A stretch of 64,000 nucleotides of DNA. Source: Giardia intestinalis (Eukaryota). Position 1 is the first letter of the stretch, and every line of letters begins with the position of its first letter. The stretch lies in NCBI GenBank assembly GCA_000002435.2, contig CM018790.1. The stretch is one strand, 5' to 3'. The notes beneath the pieces are model-generated. The model saw only the letters and a program-made list of their open reading frames with translations. It was not told where the DNA came from and did no database searches. Of this stretch, positions 19,174 through 61,647 are shown in pieces. The position numbers and the translations under genes are program-made.

Positions 19174-20617
19174 GGCTGGAGCCACATAAAGACTTCATGA
19201 TATCCGGAGGAAAGTTCCGGTTTTAGCAGTAGCCAGACGTGAGTTATGGATGCGCATTGACGATGCAGGACGCTAAACCCCGTTGATTACTTCTAAACAA
19301 TACACCCTACGAAAGCTCGTGCATGCGATGATGTACTCTATCTCGCAGCGATAACTCATCGATATGGCCCAGGTGCTTTCCACTGTTGCGCAAATACTTA
19401 TATGTACACTGCCAAACTGAGGGGCAAAGATGGCTTAACAGAACATAGTAGCAATTGATGGCTGCAGAAGGCTGCTTGTAGCGTCACCAGTGTAGGTTGA
19501 TACAGGTCCATAAAGACACTGTCCCGGAGAATGCTTCAGCAATTTTACAGTGAGACAGGCATTTCACCGAATGTGCTGTTTACTAGGGTGTAGAATATCT
19601 ACAATAATAGCTTCAGTGGTGCTAGTGAGGCGGTTCTCAGGATGATCGACTGCGGGGTTGGTACTGTGCAGAGTGCAGCCCAGTGACTTGTGTCCTTCAT
19701 TCAACACCGTTCCAGTACTACGTTCGTTAGGAGAGGTGATGGGTGCCTGGAGTAGTCTGACGAGCTCCCTGGCTGTTGATCTTTGAGTGTGGTCTAGAAC
19801 AAGCACTTTCTTGAGGATACTCCTTATGAGGTCATCTTCAACTGCACTCAGGCTGAGCCTTCACCCGTCGACGAAGACATTCCTCAGGTGCTGCTCCCAG
19901 GAGATCAGGCATTTGAAAGCGGAGAGCTCGTAGGCAATAGCACCGAAGACCCGACGTCGGACGCAGGACCGGTCTCGCCCCTGAGGTGGGTCTTGGGGGC
20001 CATGTATGCTTGGTTCCCAAAATGGCACTCCCATTGTGCAGGACATCCTTCAGAGCCCGAAGTCCGCAAGAGCTGAGCCTGCCATCTCTGCTGGCATCGA
20101 CCTTGTCGGGGTCGTGAAGGTAGGCGAGGATGATGGCAATCTGCTCCATGATGGAGAGCATTGCATCGATAGGGTTGTCGGTTCTTGCACAATCGGTAAT
20201 CGCATCTTGAGGCACCGATCCCAGCGGTCCATGACGATGAAGACAGATCAGGCGTCTCTGAGCACCTGGTAGTGCCTAATGGCATCTAGGTGTGAGCGTC
20301 TGGAAATGGTGGCCAGCACGACCCAGTGGCCTCCGTGAGCTTCCCACTCTGAGCCTTGGATAACTACCTATCACATGGACAGTACCAAAACTGCCCACAT
20401 CAAGCACCCCTCCTCGCATCGATGCAGCTCGTCGGCGGGCACAGGATATCGAGTGCACCGTCCCCGGCCATGACGGTATCAACGGCACTGTGCAGAGCAC
20501 GCTCGGGGGCAGGGGAGCGGCCACCCCTGCTCCCGGTTGCAGGCTGGCTGGCGAAGTATACGAGGCGCACCCGCTTGTCAGGCAGCTGCACCACTAGTGA
20601 CGCATTTACTACCTAAG
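19174..20617. other. Roughly 1.45 kb GC-rich region with only short, mutually overlapping ORFs on both strands. No confident gene; possibly a decayed gene.
   Basis: Lies between convergent stop codons (transporter + strand, VSP - strand). Composition is unlike the short AT-rich intergenic regions elsewhere in the window. Minus frame 2 is open from about 20524 to 19838 except for one stop near 20276. Confidence 0.3.
20604..20610 (-). terminator. Putative polyadenylation signal AGTAAAT (minus strand), about 8 nt downstream of the VSP stop codon
   Basis: Reverse complement of atttact, matching AGTRAAY, sits immediately 3' of ...CRGKA-TGA, as is typical for VSP genes. Confidence 0.5.
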
Positions 20618-22816
20618 TCACGCCTTCCCCCTGCAGAGGAACCACCAGCAGAGGAAGCCCACGAGGCCCCCCACGACAGCGACCACAGCGACGGAGATCC
20701 CCGCGATGGCCCCCGTGGAGAGCCCGCTCCTGTTGGTGTTCTGTATGAGGTAGCAGAGGACAGGCCCTTTATTGTTGGTTGGGGGAGCGCAGTTGGCGCA
20801 GTTGGCGACGCCGGTGATGGATCCGCCGTCGCTCTTGTCGCATGCTATGCACTTTTCTTTGGACAGGTAGTACCCTGCAGCGCACACCGTGCACTTGGTG
20901 GCGTCGTCCGCATTGCACTCGGAGCACCCAGTGGCGCAGGGAACGCACTTCTTAGTGTTACCGCCAGTCTTAGCATATCCAGCCTTGCACGTGTCGCACT
21001 GGTCCTGGCTGGTGCACGTCTTACATCCGGCCGAGCAAGTGATGAGCGCGCCGTTATTCAGTTTGTACCCGTCGGCCGGAGTCTGACAGGTATCGCCGGC
21101 CGGTGCTGCCTCCTCACAGACGTTCTTTCCAGGGAACTTAGTCGTCTCGTAGCAGCCCCCGTTCATACGAAGAAATCCGTTGGTGCATGAATTACACATA
21201 CCCTTGGCAACGCTTCCAGCCTTACAAGTGGCTGCAGCACGGACAGTTGTTGAGCTACAGACGCCATTTTGAGGATACTCTGTCGCTGTGGCGCACTCAG
21301 AGCAGTAGCTAGCACCATCGATAGTGAGCCCACACGTCTTGCATGCTCCTGCTCCTGTGCCCGTTGCGCATCCAGCTCCGCACGTGCCCTTAGTACCGTC
21401 GTCCCCGTACCTGAGTGCTTTTCCGGTGGGACACTCGGTGCAGTCGCTGGCAGTGCCTGCGCTGCATGTCTTGCAGCTTTCGTGGCACGGAGAGCATGCG
21501 TCGCCGTTTTTATAGAATCCGTCGCTGCATGCTTGGCACTGCCCTTGCCCATCGCAAGTCTTGCAGTTAGCCGCAGTGCACTCTTTACAGATTTTCTTTG
21601 CTCCTTCGGTAGCTCCATAGTAGTTTCCAATCTTAGCGCAGCTGTCTATGCACTGGCTTGTCGGCGTGAGATATGTGCTACTATCACAGTCTGTGCAGAC
21701 CTCGTTCTCCTTTCCTTCGTTGCTGCACGCCTTGCATCCGGGGGTCTTGCAGTTGCTTACCGCCTCGCACGTAGTTTTGTCGGCACTAGGCTTGTATCCA
21801 TCCGTGCAGGCGGAGCATGTAACGAGGGCAGCCCCTGATCGGCCACTAACCAGAGCACACGTGGCGCAATTGGCAATTCCGTCGGTGCTGTCATTACAAG
21901 GGAGGCATTTATTTCCTGCACTGCTGTCATCCTTGGGGAAGAAGCCGTCTTTGCATTGGTCTTTTTGTACGCACGACGTGCCTTCGCTTGTGGTTTTCAG
22001 GTAGTTGTTATCGGTGCATTTTGTACACTTGATCTTCTTAGATTGCTCATCGTAGCTGCAGGTGTCGCAATTGGCAACGCCACCATTGAGGTTATCGCTG
22101 CAAGAAACACATTTGTTGCCATTCTCAGAATCATCAACTGCAACGAACTTATTAGTGCTACCAGAATCGCACTGGGCTTTATCCACACACGTATTATCCT
22201 TGAGGTACTTATCCTGGCCGCACCTGGTGCACTTGGCGTCTCCGCCGGCAGCGTCTGTCAGCGCCGCCCCGTCGCATCTCTCGCAGTACTGCACCCCCCT
22301 GTACGTTTTGCCGCTGTCGGTGAACCCGGTCGTGTCCGAGCACGATACCACAGAGTCCTTGGTATTCGCCCTCAGCGGGTTGAGGAAGTACCCCGGGGCC
22401 GCCTCGGTGCATACGCCATCTCCGTCGGAACTTAAGCACAGGCTGTGTCCAGGAAGGCCTTCTCCGCTGGAATAACAGCCGTCCTTGTACATGAATGAGT
22501 TGCCTCCGCACGTCGTACAAGCCCCGCTGGCGTGTGCTTTGCAAAGAGCTTTTTTATCCGCCTGCGTCTCCACGTCCTCACAAGCACCGTTCACGGGGGC
22601 GTAGTTTGCTCCGTTGCACTCGGAGCAGTATTGTTCTTGGCCGATGGTGACGCCACACGTTTTACACTTTCCATCGTCAGCTTCTTGGGTGCAGGCTGTC
22701 CGTGCCAGCTGAAGGATGACGATCGCGAGCAAAAATCTGCCGAACATTGGGCCGCCGACCTGCTGGGCGGCGCCGGCCTTCCCTGGGAGAGGCGGGGTCG
22801 TCTGATGTGCCGACAT
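20618..22816 (-). CDS. vsp: Variant-specific surface protein (VSP): cysteine-rich type I membrane protein with many CXXC motifs, a GGCY motif, a C-terminal TM helix and an invariant CRGKA tail
   Basis: The C-terminus reads ...GISVAVVAVVGGLVGFLCWWFLCRGKA then stop. There are dozens of CXXC repeats (CKTCG, CSECN, CTTCG and others) and NGGCYETT. A probable signal peptide starts at the internal Met (MFGRFLLAIVILQLARTA, ATG near 22747), 23 codons after the first ATG at 22816. Confidence 0.9.
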   Translation of the reverse strand: MSAHQTTPPLPGKAGAAQQVGGPMFGRFLLAIVILQLARTACTQEADDGKCKTCGVTIGQEQYCSECNGANYAPVNGACEDVETQADKKALCKAHASGACTTCGGNSFMYKDGCYSSGEGLPGHSLCLSSDGDGVCTEAAPGYFLNPLRANTKDSVVSCSDTTGFTDSGKTYRGVQYCERCDGAALTDAAGGDAKCTRCGQDKYLKDNTCVDKAQCDSGSTNKFVAVDDSENGNKCVSCSDNLNGGVANCDTCSYDEQSKKIKCTKCTDNNYLKTTSEGTSCVQKDQCKDGFFPKDDSSAGNKCLPCNDSTDGIANCATCALVSGRSGAALVTCSACTDGYKPSADKTTCEAVSNCKTPGCKACSNEGKENEVCTDCDSSTYLTPTSQCIDSCAKIGNYYGATEGAKKICKECTAANCKTCDGQGQCQACSDGFYKNGDACSPCHESCKTCSAGTASDCTECPTGKALRYGDDGTKGTCGAGCATGTGAGACKTCGLTIDGASYCSECATATEYPQNGVCSSTTVRAAATCKAGSVAKGMCNSCTNGFLRMNGGCYETTKFPGKNVCEEAAPAGDTCQTPADGYKLNNGALITCSAGCKTCTSQDQCDTCKAGYAKTGGNTKKCVPCATGCSECNADDATKCTVCAAGYYLSKEKCIACDKSDGGSITGVANCANCAPPTNNKGPVLCYLIQNTNRSGLSTGAIAGISVAVVAVVGGLVGFLCWWFLCRGKA

Positions 22817-50784: not shown

Positions 50785-52158
50785 ATGCAATTTCTTGTTA
50801 CATCTCTCAAGCAGATTATCAATGCGCTTTATAGCCAGGGGTCTCCCTTGAAGCTGTCTGCAATCCGCTACAGCAATCTTTCTTCACGCAAACTATTTCC
50901 TCTCGTTGCTGGCCTTTTAACAGAAATACCAGAGGTGGACTTCAAAGACATTTTACTTACGATACGTCTATCAACATCGATCTATGGAAAGGAGATGTGC
51001 CACTTTCTGCACGACAGCAGGTACTTTCTATCTCGCTTCTGGGCCTGGTTCTATTCGTATTGTCCTAATTTGATAAGACAGTTTTCATGTTCAGTCACTA
51101 ATGCAGAACGCAAGATTCTTGCAGACATGGTAGCAATTGTGAAGGGATCTCTGGACGATGTCTTATTCTTCAATCTCAAGAACAAAGATATGTACCAGCC
51201 CTGTTGGGTCGTAATGCGACAGCCAGGGGTGCAAAGACTCGTGATAATTGCACGGGGGACTCTGTCTCTCCTTGACGGCTTTACTGACATAGACGCCTCC
51301 AGTGAGCCGCTGTCCAACTGCTTCCCGGAGCTTACTTCGGCACCGAACTTCTATGTACACCGCGGTGTCCTGCAAGCCACCATCTGGATGTATAATTCTA
51401 TTGTCCCGTGTCTCCATGCTTGGATCGATTCAGAACTGGCCTCCAGCAGAGCTGCCAAGCAAAGCCCTGAGACCGATACTGCTGGCTTCTCGCTACTGCT
51501 TTCCGGACACTCTTTGGGTAGCGCAGTGACTGTTCTGCTCGGAGCCCTTCTGCTCTTGAAACACCCTGATCGTTGGACGACAAGGAACATACAGTGCATC
51601 GGATATGGGTGCCCGCCTATCTCAAATGCTGCCTTCAGCGATTGGACAAAGGACTGGCTTACCATGTTCATATACGATATGGACATTGTCCCTAGACTAG
51701 GTGACCACTCGCTGCGTGTGCGGGCACGCAGAGCCGCAACGTATAAGGGAAACATTGAGACTCTTGAATCCGCCAACAGCATCAGTCGTACTTTGATGAT
51801 GAGCAACTCACTAATACTATCTGGAAATGTCTATCTGATTCAGCCAACCAGTGGCTACAGGCGTTACGGCTTTTGTATGCCAAAACCAATCTACAGCGCC
51901 AGCTCTATCATCGGAGAAACAAGCCTGAGTTCTTTGACCAAAGTCCTTGATGCGTCAGACGTCTATAGTGATGCATACTATCATTCGCCTCATAACGGGA
52001 TTGTCAAAGAGTTTGAGAATCGGCTGTACTTCGTTACCCCAATTGATCCACATGATTTTTCCGAGACTATGCTCAGCGAGGCTGCGCTTTATGACCACCT
52101 TTGTTACAGCAGCATAATCCCTCATATGTTCGACAGACGTAGCGACCCTCCTTTATAG
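50785..52158 (+). CDS. Class-3 (fungal-type) lipase / alpha-beta hydrolase family protein
   Basis: Nucleophile-elbow motif FSLLLSGHSLGSAVTVLLGALLLL (GHSLG), with secondary structure consistent with the Lipase_3 fold. ATG in an A-rich context (taatataATGcaa). Confidence 0.65.
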   Translation: MQFLVTSLKQIINALYSQGSPLKLSAIRYSNLSSRKLFPLVAGLLTEIPEVDFKDILLTIRLSTSIYGKEMCHFLHDSRYFLSRFWAWFYSYCPNLIRQFSCSVTNAERKILADMVAIVKGSLDDVLFFNLKNKDMYQPCWVVMRQPGVQRLVIIARGTLSLLDGFTDIDASSEPLSNCFPELTSAPNFYVHRGVLQATIWMYNSIVPCLHAWIDSELASSRAAKQSPETDTAGFSLLLSGHSLGSAVTVLLGALLLLKHPDRWTTRNIQCIGYGCPPISNAAFSDWTKDWLTMFIYDMDIVPRLGDHSLRVRARRAATYKGNIETLESANSISRTLMMSNSLILSGNVYLIQPTSGYRRYGFCMPKPIYSASSIIGETSLSSLTKVLDASDVYSDAYYHSPHNGIVKEFENRLYFVTPIDPHDFSETMLSEAALYDHLCYSSIIPHMFDRRSDPPL

Positions 52159-52858: not shown

Positions 52859-54550
52859 TCAGTTCCACTCTGTCTGCCCAGGGACCTGGGGCTTCGGACC
52901 ACCAGCCTGCTTGCGCATCACAATCACGTCGACGCGAAGGACATTGCAGGCGGTGTCTGTTGCCATGCGCATGGCCCATGCCTTTATAGCGAGGCTATCG
53001 TAGATCTGTGCAGCGCTAGTGTTGAGTGTCCACTCGCCGCTCTCATCGGCCCCATCTATGTTGACGCCCGTGTAGTCGACTCCTTGGACGTGCCTGGACT
53101 GCATCTCCGTCATTACCTCATCCGCAGGCAATCCTGCAGTCTCCGCCAAAAGCCTCGGAACAACTTCTAAGGCTTCAGCGTAGGCATGCATGGAATATTG
53201 CTGCAAGCCTGGCTCTTTGGAAGCGAGATCATGAAGCTGCGTAGCCAGCGCCATCTCTGCTGCCCCTGCCCCAGGCAAGAACCGGTCGTCACTACATGCA
53301 GCCTTGACCACATTGACTGCGTTGCCGATGGCGATAGAGACATCGTTTAGGACGCTCTGAGTTGCTGCACGCAAGACTATCGTCGTGATGTCTCTGCAAC
53401 TGACTCCAGGATCTTCCGCCACTCCGCCATCACTGGCAACATTGGCGCTGCCATCGTCCCTGGCCACAATGACCTGCTTATCTCCTATCTCTTCTATCGT
53501 CATTTCACTGCAAGCGCCCAGCTTCTCTTGTTCGGGAACACGGAACGTCATATTTAGGGCTGCACCTACACTCTTGGCAAAGCGTCGCACTTCAAACTTG
53601 GATCCAATCTTCACCGCAAGTATATTGTACTTATCGCAGAAGTGCAATGCCAGATCGTGGAAGCTCATCTGAGACACAATAACGTTGATGCCACTGTCAG
53701 AGAACTCTTTAATTTTAGCGTCCATCGCCTTCTCTTCCGAGGCAGAAAGATCCAGCAGCTCTTCTGCGCTCTGTAATAAAACCGTTCCTTTGGTCTCAGT
53801 CCTATCCAACTCAATGGCGCATCCATAGACAGCGATCCTGCAGTTCTGCATTCGCTGCACTGCACCCCGAGGAAGTGTGGGAATTACGAAGCCGCGGACC
53901 ACGAAAGAATCCGTGATTGACCTGCCCGGGACCTTTGCGATGCGTATGCTCTCTGGGTTGAAAAGACGTGAGTCTTCGGGAATGACCTGAACACAAGCCT
54001 CTGCAACGAGTCCTGAGAGGAAGTCTTCATAGCCGCTTTGCTTGGACGCCAGGGCAGGCTTTATGGCAAGCGCTAGCTGCTTCTTATCGTGTAAATCCCC
54101 GAACGGTCGGTAGATAAGCGTGCTTGAGCTGTTGCCGTCCAGCTGATTGAGAATGTGCCTGAGGGCGCGTTCATATCCTGCAATAATGTCTGTGACCACC
54201 AGCCCCTGCTCCAAAAGGTCCTTTGCACGCTCAAGGAGCTCTCCAGCGAAGGTGACCACCAGATTTGTTCCGTCGCCGTATTCCAATGCCTGATTCTGTG
54301 CCGCCATCACAAGCATCTTTGCAGCCGGATGGTTGACTTCTATCTCTGTTGCGATTGCGCTGGCATTCTTGGTGATGACCAATTTCTCTGAGTGATTCAA
54401 TATCATCTTGGAGAGTCCATTGGGTCCCATGGATGTCCGTGTGATGCGTACAAGCTGCATGCACGCCTCTATGTTTTTGAACACAGCCTCTTCAAGCCCG
54501 GAGTAGCTGCTGGTCCCGACCTTCATCATGGAAGAACTTCCAAGCGACAT
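52859..54550 (-). CDS. CCT8: T-complex protein 1 (CCT/TRiC chaperonin) subunit theta
   Basis: SGLEEAVFKNIEAC...TRTSMGPNGLSKMILNHSEKLVITKNASAIATEIEVNHPAAKMLVMAAQNQALEYGDGTNLVVTFAGELLE aligns closely to the CCT8 N-terminus. The C-terminus LRVDVIVMRKQAGGPKPQ matches CCT8's LRVDQIIMAKPAGGPKPP. Confidence 0.9.
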   Translation of the reverse strand: MSLGSSSMMKVGTSSYSGLEEAVFKNIEACMQLVRITRTSMGPNGLSKMILNHSEKLVITKNASAIATEIEVNHPAAKMLVMAAQNQALEYGDGTNLVVTFAGELLERAKDLLEQGLVVTDIIAGYERALRHILNQLDGNSSSTLIYRPFGDLHDKKQLALAIKPALASKQSGYEDFLSGLVAEACVQVIPEDSRLFNPESIRIAKVPGRSITDSFVVRGFVIPTLPRGAVQRMQNCRIAVYGCAIELDRTETKGTVLLQSAEELLDLSASEEKAMDAKIKEFSDSGINVIVSQMSFHDLALHFCDKYNILAVKIGSKFEVRRFAKSVGAALNMTFRVPEQEKLGACSEMTIEEIGDKQVIVARDDGSANVASDGGVAEDPGVSCRDITTIVLRAATQSVLNDVSIAIGNAVNVVKAACSDDRFLPGAGAAEMALATQLHDLASKEPGLQQYSMHAYAEALEVVPRLLAETAGLPADEVMTEMQSRHVQGVDYTGVNIDGADESGEWTLNTSAAQIYDSLAIKAWAMRMATDTACNVLRVDVIVMRKQAGGPKPQVPGQTEWN

Positions 54551-54808: not shown

Positions 54809-57800
54809 ATGGGTAATAGACTTTCTACCCTCATGTCTCCAGGCATTTTCTCCAAGAAATACATGATTCCGTGGAATGTTAAGGTGACTTCTTTTGAAGC
54901 ACTGAATACGAGCCGTTTTCTGAAAAGCTATCATGCCGAAAACCCGCAGACCAAGCAAGACTTTATTCTGAAGGTCTTCGTCAAATTGGAAGACATCGAT
55001 CTCTCTATCTTTAAATTTATGCTATCTCACTATAGGGAGAAGATCAATCGCTGCTGCCCCCATGTTCTTCCCTACATGGGCGAGTATGAGTCCAAGACGC
55101 ACGGCTTTCTGATTCGCCCCATGTTGTATCAAAGTCTTCCCGAATTCATTTTACAAAATCCATGGCTCACTAGGGGCCACAAAGTTTTGTACTCCATACA
55201 GATGATACTTGCAGTGAAAGAAATGCACGAGGCCGGCCTCGTCCACGGCGACATCAAACTCTCTAATTTTCTTGTCACGCATACCCATAGCCTCATGCTT
55301 ACAGACTTTGCACCCTTTAAGCCCTATCAGGTGTCGATGAGCAATCCCGTTGCTCTTAGTTACTACTTCACAGATACGATTGCCCCAGAACGTATTGTCC
55401 AGGCAGACGAGGAGCTAGATACTCTCCTTCTGCCAACCATGGAAGCGGATGTCTTCTCTCTGGGATCTGCGCTCCTGGAGCTCTGGACCTCCATCAAACC
55501 TTTCGATCTGCCAACCCTGTTTGAGTATCGCGACGCAAAAACAGGGAACATCATTAATTATGTCTTATCTTTGCTTGATCACATCACTCACGAGGAGCTC
55601 CGCGGGCTGGTCCACGCTATGATCAACCCCATTCCTTCTCAGCGCATCGACCTCTCTACCCTTCAGATCAGAAGCATCTTTACACCGGAGGAGCTCTTTG
55701 CATCTGACATTATCCTTTGTTTCCTAAAGTTCTTTAACCCCCTAAACCTGGACGATGTTGTGCACGTGGGAGCAACGCTCTTTGATGGCATATGTGACAT
55801 GTATCTCAATAGCTCCTCATCGCAAAAGGCAGCTCTTACAAAGTGTTACTTTTGTGATATTCATCATAGGTTTCAGTTTGAGCAACAGCAGCAACAGCCC
55901 GACGATCAGCATGCAAGCAAAAAGGCGTCCACAATGGCTAGGGCCTCCTCGACGATAAACTTAGGGGCTCAGAGCAGCGCAAATATTACCAGATTCGACC
56001 TTCCACAGGATAAAAAGCATCAGGCCAAGAAACCTATAGAGATGCCGTACCTGTGCACGACAAACATGGAGATACCATTCAAGATCATTGAGCAGTTAGA
56101 TGGAACCGTCTTAAGGTCTCTTGCTACCTGCGACTGCGTTCATCGAATACTGAAGGAAGGAAGAACTAGCGAAGTTAGTTGGAACTGTAACGTCTTTGGT
56201 CCATTTCGGCGAATTCTGGCCTCGGATACGCTGCAAGCGGCGATGTACCACATAGCCTACTCCATCATGAGGCTGATTCAACTAGATGCATTTTCCATCA
56301 GTGATACATATAAGAAGGGTATCCTCACTGTCTGCAGCTATGCTCTTTTCATGGATGACTCGTACGTGTCCCACCTTATCCGCATGGCATATAGAGTCTT
56401 TCGTCTGCGACCCACGGCGGTAACGCTTGGCGGCGTAGCGTACCTCCTCAATCTTCTTACGACTGCATACCAGGACATACACTATATTCCTCTGTTGGTC
56501 ATGGGCGAAGTCTTTCTTCCCAAGAACCAGCACGACAGATTTCTAGAGGGGGTAGAGATTGCTAGGCACCAGCTACTAGATGTGGAGTCTTTGGATGAGA
56601 AAGCGTTTGAAAGCTTAGCTAATATTTTCCTCTACACAGCCGGCTCATCTAGCACAACCTACCCATATTTAATCAACCACTCCTATGTGATCCAGCTGTT
56701 CCCACTTCTTCTTGCCAGCGTTGCCCGACTCAGCGGCGGAGATCCTGCTCTGAAGGTCATTATAAACGCCATTCTGTTGCGAAATAAGACCTCCCTTTTG
56801 TATAACATCTTGCGTTCTACTTCAATCACACCGATCATCCTTAGCTCAATAAGGCTTCTTTCCGACAACATTGTACTAATATCTTCGCTTTTGCCTGGAA
56901 TTCTTCCTCTTTACTTGGACTTTTTGGGAAGAACAGACTTAAGAAAAATCACCCACTTCTGCCTCGGTGACGCGATTGCGTCCATCTTTGGAGGCTGTCT
57001 GGATCAGCTTGAACCATCGTGCAAGCATATAACATCTCTAAAGACTACATTTCAAGGGGCACGCGGGGCACACTCGGGCAAGGACATATTCTTCTATGTA
57101 CGCATTTTCCTTAACAACTACCACCCTCTTCGCGATGATAAGGCGGCCGGCACCATCTTTGCAGCCATACTGAAGTCGATCTCTATCCTCCCATTGGACC
57201 TGCAATCCACGTGCATCTACTTATTCTGCAAATCCGTCTACATCCCTTCGGTTCAGTTGTCAGATGATTTGGGACGTTCCCTGTGGAGCCCTAATAATCA
57301 GAACATCTGGCTTTTGCTGAATGCAATAAAGACAGTCATAGAGAAGAAGGATTCTCAGGACGCACTTCTATTCTCGTTCTTCTTGAATGATAACCTTAAT
57401 CAATACGTTAATATTCGCCTTGCAGGGGCGCTCATGAAGATACTGACTCTTACTGTACGATCGTTTGACCTTTCCACGCAGGATTCATCTCAATATGCAG
57501 GTGTTCTCATCAAGCGTCACGTAAAGCAGAGCGTAAACGATCGTAGGCATCAGGTCATGCATATTATCTTGCCAAAGCTATCCCCCGTCGCTCCCCAGAT
57601 AGTAGAGAATCTCCACTTGTTTTATCCAGACCTGCACAAGTACTCTAGCTTCAGTGATGACGTTTCTACCCACCATGATCCTGACTACGACATCCAGCAT
57701 GAGGTCCTACGCAAGATTCAGGAAAATTACGCGCTCATAGAACGGTTGACCTTTTTGACCATCGACGATCTTACCAATCCCCAGCGCTACCTTTTCATGC

Positions 57801-60800
57801 TTCAAGAGATAGTTCATGCCGCTAGCACCATAATTGAGAACCTGACCACTTTTGTACAACAAATAGCAATAAGCACAAGCATCAATACGGACAACTTGCA
57901 AGAAAAACATGAAGAAAATCTTCCGCTCTATCTGCTGGTCAAAGACATGCCTACAGCGCCCGATGCCAATCCCAGTTTCAGCGGCATGCATGCACGCACG
58001 CAAGACGATATTCTGCATTCAAGCAAGGAGCTGAGCAGGGCTAACTTTTCGGCATCGCAGCGAATGGATTTCCGCTCGCTGACTTCGCTAAACGACGTTA
58101 GTATCTGGACAGACGCCTCTGTCAGTAGAGTCGCGGAAGAGCTTGTGTATGCAGGACATGGCAGCAGTGGTTCCCGCCATCTGATTGTTTCTAATGAGTA
58201 CCAAGTTCTGCTAAAAGACGGTGAGCGAGCCCGACATGTTGTGGAGCTGTTTTATGGTCCCGTGGGAGATGCAAAGGACCGCATGAAGGAAATACTTTTC
58301 GGAAAGGACCAGGAAGCGAGCATAGAAGACACGTCTGTGCAATACTCTACGTATAGCCTTATTCCGGAAATTAGTACGCTTCCAGATGAAAGTGTTTTGC
58401 ATTCGACGCTCTTTAGCTCGCTTCTTTCGGCCTGCAAGCCATTCCTGATTACTGACGCAAGCGCCTCCATACGAAATATGCTCCGTCCAGGGATCCTTTC
58501 TGGATACCTTTGCAAGTCCCTAAACATGCAGTCTGTCGTTCTCGCCAGGAGGTGGCTGCCGTTTCTTCGCGAGTCATCTTTGCCACCGTCAGCACTTCCC
58601 AAACTACTTAATACTCTTCTGAATAACCTGCTGATCATTAGTCCGGGGACCCACTCCCTTCCTACTAGCAACAGCCTTATCCAGCATGTCTGCAAGCAGT
58701 TTAAGGTTGAGGATATGCTTTCTGACAAACCAACAGAAATTGGTAGGGAGTTTATTACCATTCCAGGCCTCCAGCATGATCTGAAGAATACATCTGTCAT
58801 AATCACATATCAAAATCCTCTGGCATATTCCAGGCACGAGCTTGTAAAATATATCGTAGCAGAAACCCAGGTAGCTTTGGATTTCATCTCTATGAGGGCG
58901 AATCCCAGAGGCGACCTGATCATGAACAGCAAGACCATTCAAGGCATGCAGTCAAACAATCCGCTGTACACGCATTACTCAAACCTGATAAGGGCTGCTT
59001 CGGACCTAATCATCAACGCGTCCATAACCCATCATGTGAACAAAACTCCGTACAGAGCCTTACTACCCGCGAATTCGGTTAGTCTGAACGATATCCAGGG
59101 ACCTCTAGAGCGCATTGGAACGATACAAAGCAAGCTTGCATATGACTTTGTCGCAAATGACCACGTCTCCATGACATCAAAGAACATGACCCTCCCCGGG
59201 TGCGTTCAAACAAGGGTTTCATATAACTACGCAAGCCTCAAATCCTTTACCTACTCGGCGATTGGAAATATGTTTATCATCTTAGATGCTAAAAACTACA
59301 TTCACTTCTATCTCAATCCAGTGGACGAGGCGATCAAATTCTTGGCGCAAAGGATTCTTCTCCTCTCAAGGACAGTAAAGATATCTATGGAGAGCTCGCC
59401 AGAAGCCCATGCTGACCACTACTCAGTATTGGCAGGGCTTCCTCAAGGACTTCCTCAACTGCAGAATGAACCTAAGCACCAGAAGATCACGGCCCCCGTT
59501 CTAACGTCTAGCCCTGCTCTGGAGTCATTAGAAAGCATTATGGAGTATCTAAGTACTGGGGTACTAACTCTTCCTCTAGCAACATTCCACATACCTGGTG
59601 TTTCCATCTTACATATCTTTGTGGATCCTTGTGGCATACCCATACTTGGGGGCGGAAAAGCGACAGAGAAGAAAAGTGTGCGCCACGAATTCCTAGCACT
59701 CAATATTGTTACCGATAGTTGCGTGGTTAAGCTCTTAGTTGATCCTGACATGCTTATCCAGCAATATACAGAGGCCATTTTGGTGACCGACAGCAACTGC
59801 AATGCTAATAGGGCTGGGGGTGTCACCTTTAGCATGAATGACGCTGTCTTTTCATTGTCCATTAGCGGCTCCGGTAAAAGTGTGGAGTTAGTGGACTTTG
59901 GGATGCTACACAAAACACAGCTTAACGGTGCGCTTACTGAGAACACAATCCAGTACCTATTGCCATACCTGACTGCAGATCAGATCTGCACGTTTCTTAA
60001 GGCATACCACAATGACTCTGTCACTGAGAAGTCTTCGGCACCTAAAGTCACACACCTGTACATGCACTCAACCCTCTCTGCTTCCCTAGACCACGCTAAT
60101 GGTGTGGAGCTTCTACTGACTAGGCTCAGATACAAGAACCAGTTTCCTTTGAACCTCAAATCTGCTGAAAGCCAGGTTTATTCCGTGATGCCGCACAGGA
60201 TCCTAACGTATTACAATTGCTACCTCTTGTCAGAAATCGTCGCTATCCTCTCTACTACAGTGGTAACCTGCACTGCTCTTTATGATGGTACTTCTGGGAA
60301 TCGCATGTACACATTGCCTAAGGAGTTCGGGGAGATCCAATATGCGTGCGAGTCAGCCTCTGGCAGCATTGCCGTTCTAACATCTATGGGCTGGCTCATT
60401 CTCCTTGAGTTCAGGGCGGGCAACCTTCTCGATCTCTGGGTATTGGCTGAGAAGCAACGCTACAATGTTCATAGGTATTCGGCGATTTTAGGCTTCAATG
60501 GCCTACTGAGCCCCACGCATTCATTTACACACGAAGCTGAAGAGAGCGCAGAAGCCATTACCGAGTCCACCGCAAAACCTTCTGTGCGCAGATACTATGC
60601 TATTACTAGTACGTTATTTATTGTAGCATACGGCTCCCATGTGGTTATCTACGAATTTGACAGCAAACTGGAGAATCCTGTCCTTCAATTCGTCGGTGGG
60701 CTTGATGTCCGCATGAGTGGCCACACTAAGAATCGCACAAAGCAACAGGAAAAGCCAGCATTTTCAGCCATTACTAGTCACGAGAACTCTTGCATCCTTG

Positions 60801-61075
60801 GATTGTCGAACGGGGCAGTTCTTATGGTCAATGAGTGTGAAAAGGAAATCATATCATGTAAAATGCTCTCCTCTCCAAACAAGTATCGTATAACTTCTAA
60901 CATTGATTTGGCATCGACTGATACTGTTACTAATAACCACAAAAAGTTCGGTGTGTTTTTCAGCAACCAGCCCTCAGGACTAGTAGCCCACCAGGGGCCT
61001 GTTGTTGCTATCAAGAGCTCTGGACACAGTGTGTTTAGTGCGGACACCAGTGGGCTAATACTCTTCTATCACTAA
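54809..61075 (+). CDS. VPS15: Serine/threonine protein kinase VPS15 (the PI3K class III regulatory subunit, p150/PIK3R4 orthologue): N-myristoylated kinase domain, helical HEAT region, C-terminal WD40-like region. Unusually long at 2088 aa.
   Basis: Starts MGNRLS, a myristoylation consensus shared with yeast Vps15 (MGAQLS) and human PIK3R4 (MGNQLA). The catalytic-loop and activation region HGDIKLSNFLVTHTHSLMLTDFAPFKP...FTDTIAPERIV closely matches the VPS15 signature HGDIK.EN.LVTSWNW..LTDFASFKP...APERF. Confidence 0.85.
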   Translation: MGNRLSTLMSPGIFSKKYMIPWNVKVTSFEALNTSRFLKSYHAENPQTKQDFILKVFVKLEDIDLSIFKFMLSHYREKINRCCPHVLPYMGEYESKTHGFLIRPMLYQSLPEFILQNPWLTRGHKVLYSIQMILAVKEMHEAGLVHGDIKLSNFLVTHTHSLMLTDFAPFKPYQVSMSNPVALSYYFTDTIAPERIVQADEELDTLLLPTMEADVFSLGSALLELWTSIKPFDLPTLFEYRDAKTGNIINYVLSLLDHITHEELRGLVHAMINPIPSQRIDLSTLQIRSIFTPEELFASDIILCFLKFFNPLNLDDVVHVGATLFDGICDMYLNSSSSQKAALTKCYFCDIHHRFQFEQQQQQPDDQHASKKASTMARASSTINLGAQSSANITRFDLPQDKKHQAKKPIEMPYLCTTNMEIPFKIIEQLDGTVLRSLATCDCVHRILKEGRTSEVSWNCNVFGPFRRILASDTLQAAMYHIAYSIMRLIQLDAFSISDTYKKGILTVCSYALFMDDSYVSHLIRMAYRVFRLRPTAVTLGGVAYLLNLLTTAYQDIHYIPLLVMGEVFLPKNQHDRFLEGVEIARHQLLDVESLDEKAFESLANIFLYTAGSSSTTYPYLINHSYVIQLFPLLLASVARLSGGDPALKVIINAILLRNKTSLLYNILRSTSITPIILSSIRLLSDNIVLISSLLPGILPLYLDFLGRTDLRKITHFCLGDAIASIFGGCLDQLEPSCKHITSLKTTFQGARGAHSGKDIFFYVRIFLNNYHPLRDDKAAGTIFAAILKSISILPLDLQSTCIYLFCKSVYIPSVQLSDDLGRSLWSPNNQNIWLLLNAIKTVIEKKDSQDALLFSFFLNDNLNQYVNIRLAGALMKILTLTVRSFDLSTQDSSQYAGVLIKRHVKQSVNDRRHQVMHIILPKLSPVAPQIVENLHLFYPDLHKYSSFSDDVSTHHDPDYDIQHEVLRKIQENYALIERLTFLTIDDLTNPQRYLFMLQEIVHAASTIIENLTTFVQQIAISTSINTDNLQEKHEENLPLYLLVKDMPTAPDANPSFSGMHARTQDDILHSSKELSRANFSASQRMDFRSLTSLNDVSIWTDASVSRVAEELVYAGHGSSGSRHLIVSNEYQVLLKDGERARHVVELFYGPVGDAKDRMKEILFGKDQEASIEDTSVQYSTYSLIPEISTLPDESVLHSTLFSSLLSACKPFLITDASASIRNMLRPGILSGYLCKSLNMQSVVLARRWLPFLRESSLPPSALPKLLNTLLNNLLIISPGTHSLPTSNSLIQHVCKQFKVEDMLSDKPTEIGREFITIPGLQHDLKNTSVIITYQNPLAYSRHELVKYIVAETQVALDFISMRANPRGDLIMNSKTIQGMQSNNPLYTHYSNLIRAASDLIINASITHHVNKTPYRALLPANSVSLNDIQGPLERIGTIQSKLAYDFVANDHVSMTSKNMTLPGCVQTRVSYNYASLKSFTYSAIGNMFIILDAKNYIHFYLNPVDEAIKFLAQRILLLSRTVKISMESSPEAHADHYSVLAGLPQGLPQLQNEPKHQKITAPVLTSSPALESLESIMEYLSTGVLTLPLATFHIPGVSILHIFVDPCGIPILGGGKATEKKSVRHEFLALNIVTDSCVVKLLVDPDMLIQQYTEAILVTDSNCNANRAGGVTFSMNDAVFSLSISGSGKSVELVDFGMLHKTQLNGALTENTIQYLLPYLTADQICTFLKAYHNDSVTEKSSAPKVTHLYMHSTLSASLDHANGVELLLTRLRYKNQFPLNLKSAESQVYSVMPHRILTYYNCYLLSEIVAILSTTVVTCTALYDGTSGNRMYTLPKEFGEIQYACESASGSIAVLTSMGWLILLEFRAGNLLDLWVLAEKQRYNVHRYSAILGFNGLLSPTHSFTHEAEESAEAITESTAKPSVRRYYAITSTLFIVAYGSHVVIYEFDSKLENPVLQFVGGLDVRMSGHTKNRTKQQEKPAFSAITSHENSCILGLSNGAVLMVNECEKEIISCKMLSSPNKYRITSNIDLASTDTVTNNHKKFGVFFSNQPSGLVAHQGPVVAIKSSGHSVFSADTSGLILFYH

Positions 61076-61098: not shown

Positions 61099-61647
61099 AT
61101 GAAGGTAAAGCGTCTTAAGAAGACCAAAAAAACCCTCAAATTCTTTTCCATTAACTTCCGCCTCACCCCACCGTACCATATACTGTTCGATGGCACATTT
61201 CTCAACCATGTGGCTCATATTCATCAGCCCCTGCAAGAAATCGTTGACCGAGTATTTATGAGGCAGCCGGTTGTCTTTTACACGACGGCACAGGTGGTTG
61301 AAGAGCTCAAGAAGCTCGAAATGGAGGATGCACTCAAGCTGGCTGCATCTCTGAAGACCCTATCTCCAACGGGAGAGACTCCTGCAGAGAGCATTCTCAA
61401 CCTGGTGGTGACCCCCAACCTTCCCAAGCAGCAGTTCTTTGTAGTTGCAACACGTGACTGGGAGCTAATTTCTAAAATACGGAAGTATCCCAAGGCAATG
61501 GTTCTGAATATCAATGGGGTGGTTCCCATCCTGGACACCCCGTCCTATGCTAGCCAGGACGTAGCCCGCGAGAAGCAGCTGAAGCTCATGGGTGTCGACC
61601 CGTCTTCAGAGGAGTGGAAGCGCCCTGCCAGACGGGGTAAAGGTTAA
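61099..61647 (+). CDS. UTP23: rRNA-processing protein UTP23 (a PIN-domain component of the small-subunit processome)
   Basis: The N-terminus MKVKRLKKTKKTLKFFSINFRLTPPYHILFDGTFLNHVA matches human UTP23 MKITRQKHAKKHLGFFRNNFGVREPYQILLDGTFCQAAL. QFFVVATRDWELISKIRKYPKAMVLNINGVVPILDTPS matches HYFVATQDQNLSVKVKKKPGVPLMFIIQNTMVLDKPS. Confidence 0.75.
   Translation: MKVKRLKKTKKTLKFFSINFRLTPPYHILFDGTFLNHVAHIHQPLQEIVDRVFMRQPVVFYTTAQVVEELKKLEMEDALKLAASLKTLSPTGETPAESILNLVVTPNLPKQQFFVVATRDWELISKIRKYPKAMVLNINGVVPILDTPSYASQDVAREKQLKLMGVDPSSEEWKRPARRGKG

Follow-up and report, generated by a model that had tools for sequence, protein, structure and literature searches.

Vps34, the class III phosphatidylinositol 3-kinase (PI3K), is scaffolded in other eukaryotes by VPS15, an N-myristoylated, pseudo-regulatory kinase. 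In the yeast and human complexes (5dfz, 7bl1) the myristoylated Vps15 is said to lie on the membrane with its kinase domain touching the kinase domain of Vps34, the Vps15 HEAT region reportedly touches the C2/helical region of Vps34, and the WD40 domain is reported to carry the arm formed by Vps30/Beclin and Vps38 or Atg14. Here we describe the long VPS15 of Giardia intestinalis, encoded by a single open reading frame (ORF) in a stretch of 64,000 nucleotides of contig CM018790.1 (assembly GCA_000002435.2), hereafter called the window, see Table 1. The protein is very probably a VPS15 orthologue with the canonical order of kinase, helical region and propeller, and by analogy with the yeast and human complexes it would act as the scaffold of Vps34. 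Its additional sequence is predicted to be distributed around this layout.

Yeast Vps15 (1454 aa; 5dfz_B, 5kc2_B) shares with the Giardia protein the MG start, the HGDIK and DFA.FKP motifs and, as far as the models predict, the order kinase, helical region, WD40 propeller. The Giardia protein is however 634 aa longer, and sequence comparison does not recognise its helical and propeller parts. Unlike the yeast protein it contains a CxxC…CxC motif that flanks a variable loop, a conserved block at residues 1264-1413 and predicted inserts between the propeller blades. The partners of yeast Vps15 (Vps30, Vps38, Atg14) are not detected in Giardia (PMC8161075). Compared with human PIK3R4 / p150 (1358 aa; 7bl1, 9mhh), which matches in the kinase with an E-value of 1.4e-16, the protein is 54% longer. 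The human chain 9mhh_A is matched by both of the AlphaFold2 (AF2) models described below, and outside the kinase the likeness is one of fold class only. The presumed partner in Giardia, GiPI3K2 (GenPept EAA40923), is a lipid kinase, i.e. a member of a different family, and is encoded outside the window. It is an expressed class III PI3K of 1638 aa, likewise about twice the usual size, with a lineage-specific insert of 235 aa (PMC1483827).

The annotation itself is settled, as the exact sequence is already on record as "Kinase, VPS15" (XP_001708148.1 / UniProt A8BAU3, Giardia intestinalis ATCC 50803 WB clone C6). In the 2011 Giardia kinome paper, ORF 113456 is the sole VPS15, called "Active", with 1:1:1 orthologues in WB, GS and P15 (PMC3218828). 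The name VPS15 at a length of 2088 aa is therefore known from both the WB genome annotation and the kinome paper, and the observation of a long VPS15, as first stated, adds nothing to the databases and is of modest, specialist interest. New are a domain map at low resolution, the evidence for a cryptic propeller, the finding that the long form is more widely distributed, and a small number of conserved motifs that are non-canonical. The remaining value is anatomical: a first domain map is given for a protein that, outside the kinase, lacks any Pfam match over 85% of its length. ESU39461.1, a 2092-aa copy from another G. intestinalis isolate that clusters with the window protein at 90% identity, bears the name 'Variant-specific surface protein', almost certainly a mis-annotation.

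The N-terminal part of the protein is of VPS15 type. With Pfam, a protein kinase domain alone is found in the full protein (residues 75-283, E-value 1.2e-14). When the PDB sequences are searched with phmmer, yeast Vps15 ranks on top (E-value 3.4e-26, residues 25-297 against 26-305), followed by human PIK3R4, and the next families, Nek7 and PLK4, are at about 3e-6. A search of 5.8 billion proteins gave a similar picture: among the best 120 matches all 114 from outside Giardia carry the VPS15 HEAT/WD40 domain set, and those that are named are nearly all VPS15/PIK3R4. We also compared a profile of the long-form family (7 sequences, see below) with a profile of 18 diverse canonical VPS15s, using hhalign. 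Residues 1-336 are aligned from the MGN itself, with an E-value of 8.8e-45. The signature residues, namely the β3 lysine K55, the catalytic loop H146-G-D-I-K150 with N153, D166-F-A-P-F-K-P172 (DFA standing for DFG, then the FKP specific to VPS15) and A192-P-E194, match invariant columns of the canonical alignment, and across the long-form family they are invariant or conservatively replaced (DFA by DYA or DLA) wherever the region is present. The retained catalytic residues agree with the "Active" call of the kinome paper (PMC3218828). By sequence, the ORF is thus supported as a VPS15/PIK3R4 orthologue whose kinase keeps an intact catalytic signature.

An earlier reading of the window, made from the sequence only, had named VPS15 on the basis of an MGNRLS start and an HGDIK...LTDFA.FKP core. 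Both are present in the ORF, the core as HGDIK at residues 146-150 and LTDFAPFKP at 164-172, and the identity is borne out by the PDB ranking, the database neighbours and the profile alignment. On the same three results, with 3.4e-26 for Vps15 against about 3e-6 for the next family, a different kinase family was rejected. The same reading had proposed that the myristoylation signal is retained, and at the level of the motif this is what we find. The start is MGNRLST in the G. intestinalis assemblages, MGTLVST in G. muris and MGNSFST in the corrected P0006 sequence (see below), compared with MGNxLS in canonical VPS15. Gly2 together with Ser/Thr at position 6 or 7 is kept in every long-form lineage for which the N-terminus is available. 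No usable paper on an N-myristoyltransferase of Giardia came out of a literature search.

The long-form family is tiny. It was recruited by two word-based searches and an exhaustive HMMER search of 1.84 billion representatives, and consists of the G. intestinalis assemblages (99, 89, 78 and 69% identity), G. muris (1890 aa) and two further sequences, P0006 (SRA assembly SRR31929897) and P0128 (JGI metagenome 3300010163). P0128 was the sole addition from the exhaustive search, made with the profile of the middle region, and a second word-based search, with the family profile, and a third, with the P0128 ORF, gave no new relatives. In P0006, the most divergent of the relatives that are complete, the gene model was truncated at the N-terminus (L001 5650-6000). 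Its true start, MGNSFSTT, lies 118 codons upstream and is followed by a VPS15-type N-lobe, which brings the corrected protein to 2304 aa. The gene model of P0128 was truncated there as well: when its frame is followed upstream to the contig edge (L002 2-1309), the C-lobe of a VPS15 kinase is read, IAPERVV…EADVFSLGCALIELW, which makes P0128 another long-form VPS15 with a length of 2262 aa or more. G. muris, P0006 and P0128 are 20-36% identical to the G. intestinalis protein and differ from it in the lengths and positions of the inserts. All share with it the architecture, the CYFC…CxC motif, the GD(I/L)(I/L)…QS.N block and a terminal WD-like repeat, and the forms with an N-terminus share the MG..S start. 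Judged by these sequences, the long form is present in at least four lineages.

The 121 canonical VPS15 proteins that we recovered have a median length of 1372 aa, the shortest being 1197 and the longest 1828 aa. The Giardia protein exceeds all of them, being 1.44 times as long as the yeast protein, 1.54 times as long as the human one and 1.52 times the median, and the sequence-only reading was right to call its length unusual. That reading had also placed the extra sequence between the kinase and the WD40 region. This is correct for roughly two thirds of it, while the remaining third falls within the propeller region. The excess was mapped by three anchors: residues 1-336 correspond to canonical columns 3-341, the first predicted blade, at ~1477, corresponds to column ~1018, and the C-termini coincide. 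The kinase-to-propeller stretch is then ~1140 aa in Giardia against ~680 in canonical VPS15 (roughly 460 extra), and the propeller region ~610 against ~390 aa (roughly 200 extra, as inserts). We interpret the ~650 extra residues as lineage-specific insertions around a divergent kinase, helical and β-propeller layout. They would comprise a low-complexity loop that follows the kinase and is flanked by Cys, a lengthy helical and disordered stretch of poor conservation, the conserved family-specific block and the inserts between the propeller blades.

After residue 336 conventional sequence searches are silent. Pfam, applied to the full protein and to six C-terminal fragments, finds no HEAT or WD40 match, and none in any family member; one member has a weak match to Beta-prop_ACSF4 (E-value 0.004). 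Hidden Markov model (HMM) profiles of residues 290-1300 and 1250-2088 have no match among all PDB sequences. With the HMMER filters off, the same two profiles, and P0128 alone, score at most 5 bits against the 121 canonical VPS15s. With hhalign the 7-sequence family, whole or sliced, gives nothing after residue 336 against the canonical profile, the best E-value being 0.07 at the C-terminus.

The C-terminus is the part where this changes when P0128 is added. Degenerate WD-like signatures are then in register, e.g. ILDAKNYIHFYLNP in Giardia with ADSEGFVTIFANP in P0128, and LGLSNGAVLMV with TGWSDGSLLMT. The terminal repeat reads …VFSADTSGLILFYH in Giardia and LFSADRRGRVLAWKWA in P0128, the latter being intermediate toward the canonical …SA.RDGVIKVWK. 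With P0128 included, hhalign places residues 1789-2088 onto the last ~300 columns of canonical VPS15 (P 0.0025) and residues 1449-2088 co-linearly onto columns 627-1400 (P 0.0017). What may be the first blade is aligned to the first WD repeat of canonical VPS15, with P ~0.06. The real scores are 35-40, against ~20 for the reversed profile and 17-19 ± 2.9 (maximum 25) for 30 block-shuffled profiles.

Two AF2 models were built, of residues 290-1300 and 1250-2088, from 6-sequence alignments, and interpreted only where the confidence was moderate. The C-terminal model has a mean predicted local distance difference test (pLDDT) of 39.5. Residues ~1809-2088 reach 55-82, and there successive groups of four strands form the pattern of propeller blades. 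Further clusters of strands are seen at ~1477-1502, 1591-1644 and 1672-1685, with helices between them. Foldseek against the PDB finds 206 matches to this model with an E-value of at most 1e-3. The 50 that were listed are nearly all β-propellers, mostly WD40 (Seh1, Pwp2, WDR41, β-TrCP, KIF21A), with yeast Vps15 (5dfz_B) at rank 10 and human VPS15 (9mhh_A) at rank 50. According to the models, the protein thus probably ends in a WD40-type propeller that runs to the last residue. It is hhalign and the fold searches together that speak against a protein without a propeller, hhalign being modest when taken alone.

The model of the middle region is entirely helical, with a mean pLDDT of 45.9. Residues ~473-809 reach 55-82 and form ~20 short helices. 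All Foldseek matches are HEAT/ARM proteins (Mot1, SF3B1, importins, β-catenin, mTOR), the best with an E-value of 7e-3, and human VPS15 (9mhh_A) is found at rank 7 with a probability of 0.90 and an E-value of 0.028. The middle-region profile still gives no HEAT signal after P0128 has been added. Because the approach that supported the propeller is silent here, the HEAT segment is taken as a predicted fold class only. Structure prediction had been suggested as the check on the HEAT and WD40 segments, and its outcome is divided: the propeller is predicted, and the HEAT assignment is a predicted fold class without sequence support. The complete arrangement, an α-solenoid after the kinase and then a terminal WD40-type β-propeller, is predicted with low to moderate confidence.

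Outside the kinase there are conserved elements that are non-canonical. Following the kinase, the cysteines C346, C349, C441 and C443 occur without exception in the seven long-form sequences, on either side of a variable loop of ~90 aa, rich in poly-Q and Ser. In this region 5/17 Cys are invariant, against 42/1011 for residues overall (Fisher p 4e-4), and the canonical VPS15 alignment has no conserved Cys at the equivalent position. CxxC…CxC may be a lineage-specific pair of zinc knuckles. In the block at 1264-1413 most of the invariant positions, notably the GD…QSSN core, are kept in four of four lineages. No counterpart of it was detected in canonical VPS15. Elsewhere conservation is uneven: residues 500-700 are nearly level with the kinase domain, and over residues 700-1200, where conservation is very poor, identity to G. 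muris is 9-17%.

The length of the protein, and the 85% of it without a Pfam match, could raise the suspicion that adjacent genes, or a gene and non-coding sequence, have been merged in one ORF. Nothing positive favours such an artefact, and we hold it to be extremely improbable. The frame is open for 6264 nt, while intergenic spacers in this genome measure 23-260 nt, and its counterparts in G. muris, P0006 and P0128 are collinear with it throughout, conserved islands being scattered along the whole length. Since full-length collinear orthologues exist in the other assemblages, in G. muris and in two distant lineages, the ORF is not a fusion or assembly artefact; two fused genes, or a gene read together with non-coding sequence, are ruled out by them. 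The points that do weigh against an orthologue of canonical layout concern what follows the kinase. Neither HMMER nor Pfam nor the PDB searches show similarity to VPS15 after residue ~336. No solenoid match reaches an E-value of 1e-3, and HEAT/ARM proteins are what any helical repeat would be expected to match. WD40 features in general, not ancestry specific to VPS15, could account for the hhalign signal, and the number of blades and the N-terminal half of the predicted propeller are uncertain because both AF2 models are of low confidence. Finally, tagged VPS15 was broadly distributed in a 2026 study (PMC13657398). The missing sequence similarity after residue ~336 and the broad distribution would suit a kinase in which the kinase module alone is orthologous, the rest having been newly acquired and the scaffolding of Vps34 lost. 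So would the failure to detect in Giardia the proteins that the WD40/HEAT arm usually binds, Beclin/Atg6 and Atg14 (PMC8161075). We nevertheless regard such repurposing as quite unlikely. The predicted order of solenoid then propeller, and a WD repeat that ends exactly at the C-terminus, mirror VPS15, the co-linear hhalign score is about six standard deviations above the shuffled controls, and the genome has one VPS15-class kinase and has retained Vps34 (PMC3218828, PMC1483827).

Accepting a true VPS15 orthologue, the extra length could still be neutral: drift would have produced low-complexity and disordered stretches such as are common in the proteins of Giardia, and they would have no lineage-specific role in binding. 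We give this a chance only slightly short of even. The poly-Q/Ser-rich loop at 350-410 and residues 700-1200 are poorly conserved with a pLDDT below 40, 1890 aa suffice in G. muris, and the lengths of the inserts vary from lineage to lineage. Large unexplained inserts are also present in GiPI3K2 and GiPI3K1 (PMC1483827), suggesting a genome-wide tendency. However, CYFC…CxC, the block at 1264-1413 and the region 500-700 are strongly conserved across four deep lineages, and a long form, of 1890 to at least 2300 aa, is retained in every one of them. This conservation, in particular that of the 1264-1413 block and the Cys motif, argues for selection on at least part of the added sequence. The poor conservation of residues 700-1200 and the varying lengths of the inserts argue against selection on much of it. 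A more far-reaching proposal is that the long VPS15 is a self-sufficient scaffold, in which CxxC…CxC, the 1264-1413 block and the inserts between blades replace the Beclin/Atg6 and Atg14/Vps38 arm. If true, Giardia would have a minimal two-subunit class III PI3K complex with the equally expanded GiPI3K2, targeted by the insertions to the peripheral vacuoles; we consider this unlikely.

The reading that we prefer is a conventional Vps34-Vps15 core with lineage-specific additions, which by analogy most likely takes part in endocytic production of phosphatidylinositol 3-phosphate (PI3P). The myristoylated N-terminus and the kinase domain would hold VPS15 on the membrane beside the kinase domain of Vps34, in Giardia presumably GiPI3K2. 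The solenoid would bind the C2/helical region of Vps34, and the propeller could dock further subunits or GTPases. PX/FYVE proteins would recognise the product, PI3P, at the peripheral vacuoles, where masking of PI3P inhibits fluid-phase uptake (PMC7058353). According to reviews, VPS34 and VPS15 are the only components of the class III PI3K complex (PI3KC3) or of the core autophagy (ATG) machinery detected in Giardia (PMC8161075; PMC13657398). Given this, and as PI3P readers govern uptake at the peripheral vacuoles, a map of the conserved parts of the scaffold could help to dissect a minimal PI3P-producing machine. The three conserved non-canonical elements of the long VPS15 are concrete targets for mutagenesis.

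Table 1. Features of the VPS15 ORF and its neighbours, with positions in the window, strand, and basis or remarks.
Feature	Position	Strand	Basis or remarks
Complete ORF, VPS15 (PIK3R4) orthologue	54809..61075	+	2088 aa plus stop; identical to XP_001708148.1 / A8BAU3 (GL50803_113456)
MGNRLST, N-myristoylation consensus (Gly2, Ser6)	54809..54829	+	motif conservation
VPS15-type kinase domain and post-kinase helices (aa 1-336)	54809..55816	+	K55, HGDIK (D148), N153, D166-F-A, A-P-E194; FKP after DFA
Cys-flanked segment (aa 346-443), C346-Y-F-C349 and C441-x-C443	55844..56137	+	lineage-specific; alignment conservation
Predicted α-helical solenoid, HEAT/ARM-like (aa ~473-809)	56225..57235	+	AF2, Foldseek; includes the best-conserved non-kinase block, ~500-700
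Helical/disordered region (aa ~810-1263), poorly conserved, most of the extra length	57236..58597	+	pLDDT < 50
Family-specific block (aa 1264-1413), motifs PGTHSLP and GDLIMNSKTIQGMQSNNP…ITHHVNKT	58598..59047	+	conserved
Predicted WD40-type β-propeller with helical/disordered inserts (aa ~1477-2088)	59237..61072	+	confident part ~1809-2088 (60233-61072)
Class 3 lipase-domain protein	50785-52158	+	Pfam E-value 3e-18; upstream neighbour
TCP-1/CCT chaperonin subunit	52859-54550	-	Pfam E-value 1.5e-135; upstream neighbour
Fcf1-like rRNA-processing gene	61099-61647	+	Pfam; 23 nt past the VPS15 stop

The VPS15 frame is uninterrupted, and its protein starts with MGNRLSTLMSP. The ATG is the earliest possible start downstream of the previous in-frame stop and is immediately preceded on the 5' side by an A-rich tract, caaaaaaccaaaaaattaaATG; the frame ends with TAA. 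The window has a GC content of ~47%, and its genes are densely packed and intron-less. A Pfam scan that covered the neighbours, two nearby ORFs and a giant ORF, with the remaining large ORFs unscanned, found no Vps34, Beclin or Atg14 gene in the window. The two nearby ORFs and the giant ORF have no Pfam match. In two lineages the long VPS15 is followed directly by an rRNA-processing gene, which is Fcf1-like in the window and Fcf2 on the metagenomic contig of P0128 (L002 6859-7479, minus strand). As the two belong to different families, this is probably a coincidence. The giant ORF (28876-49704, minus strand) has 6942 codons and fills about a third of the window; in its first 4900 residues no Pfam match is found at an E-value of at most 1e-3. 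At 20001-22000 the GC content has a local peak of 0.576, against ~0.47 elsewhere, which overlaps an ORF of 732 aa at 20618-22816 on the minus strand.

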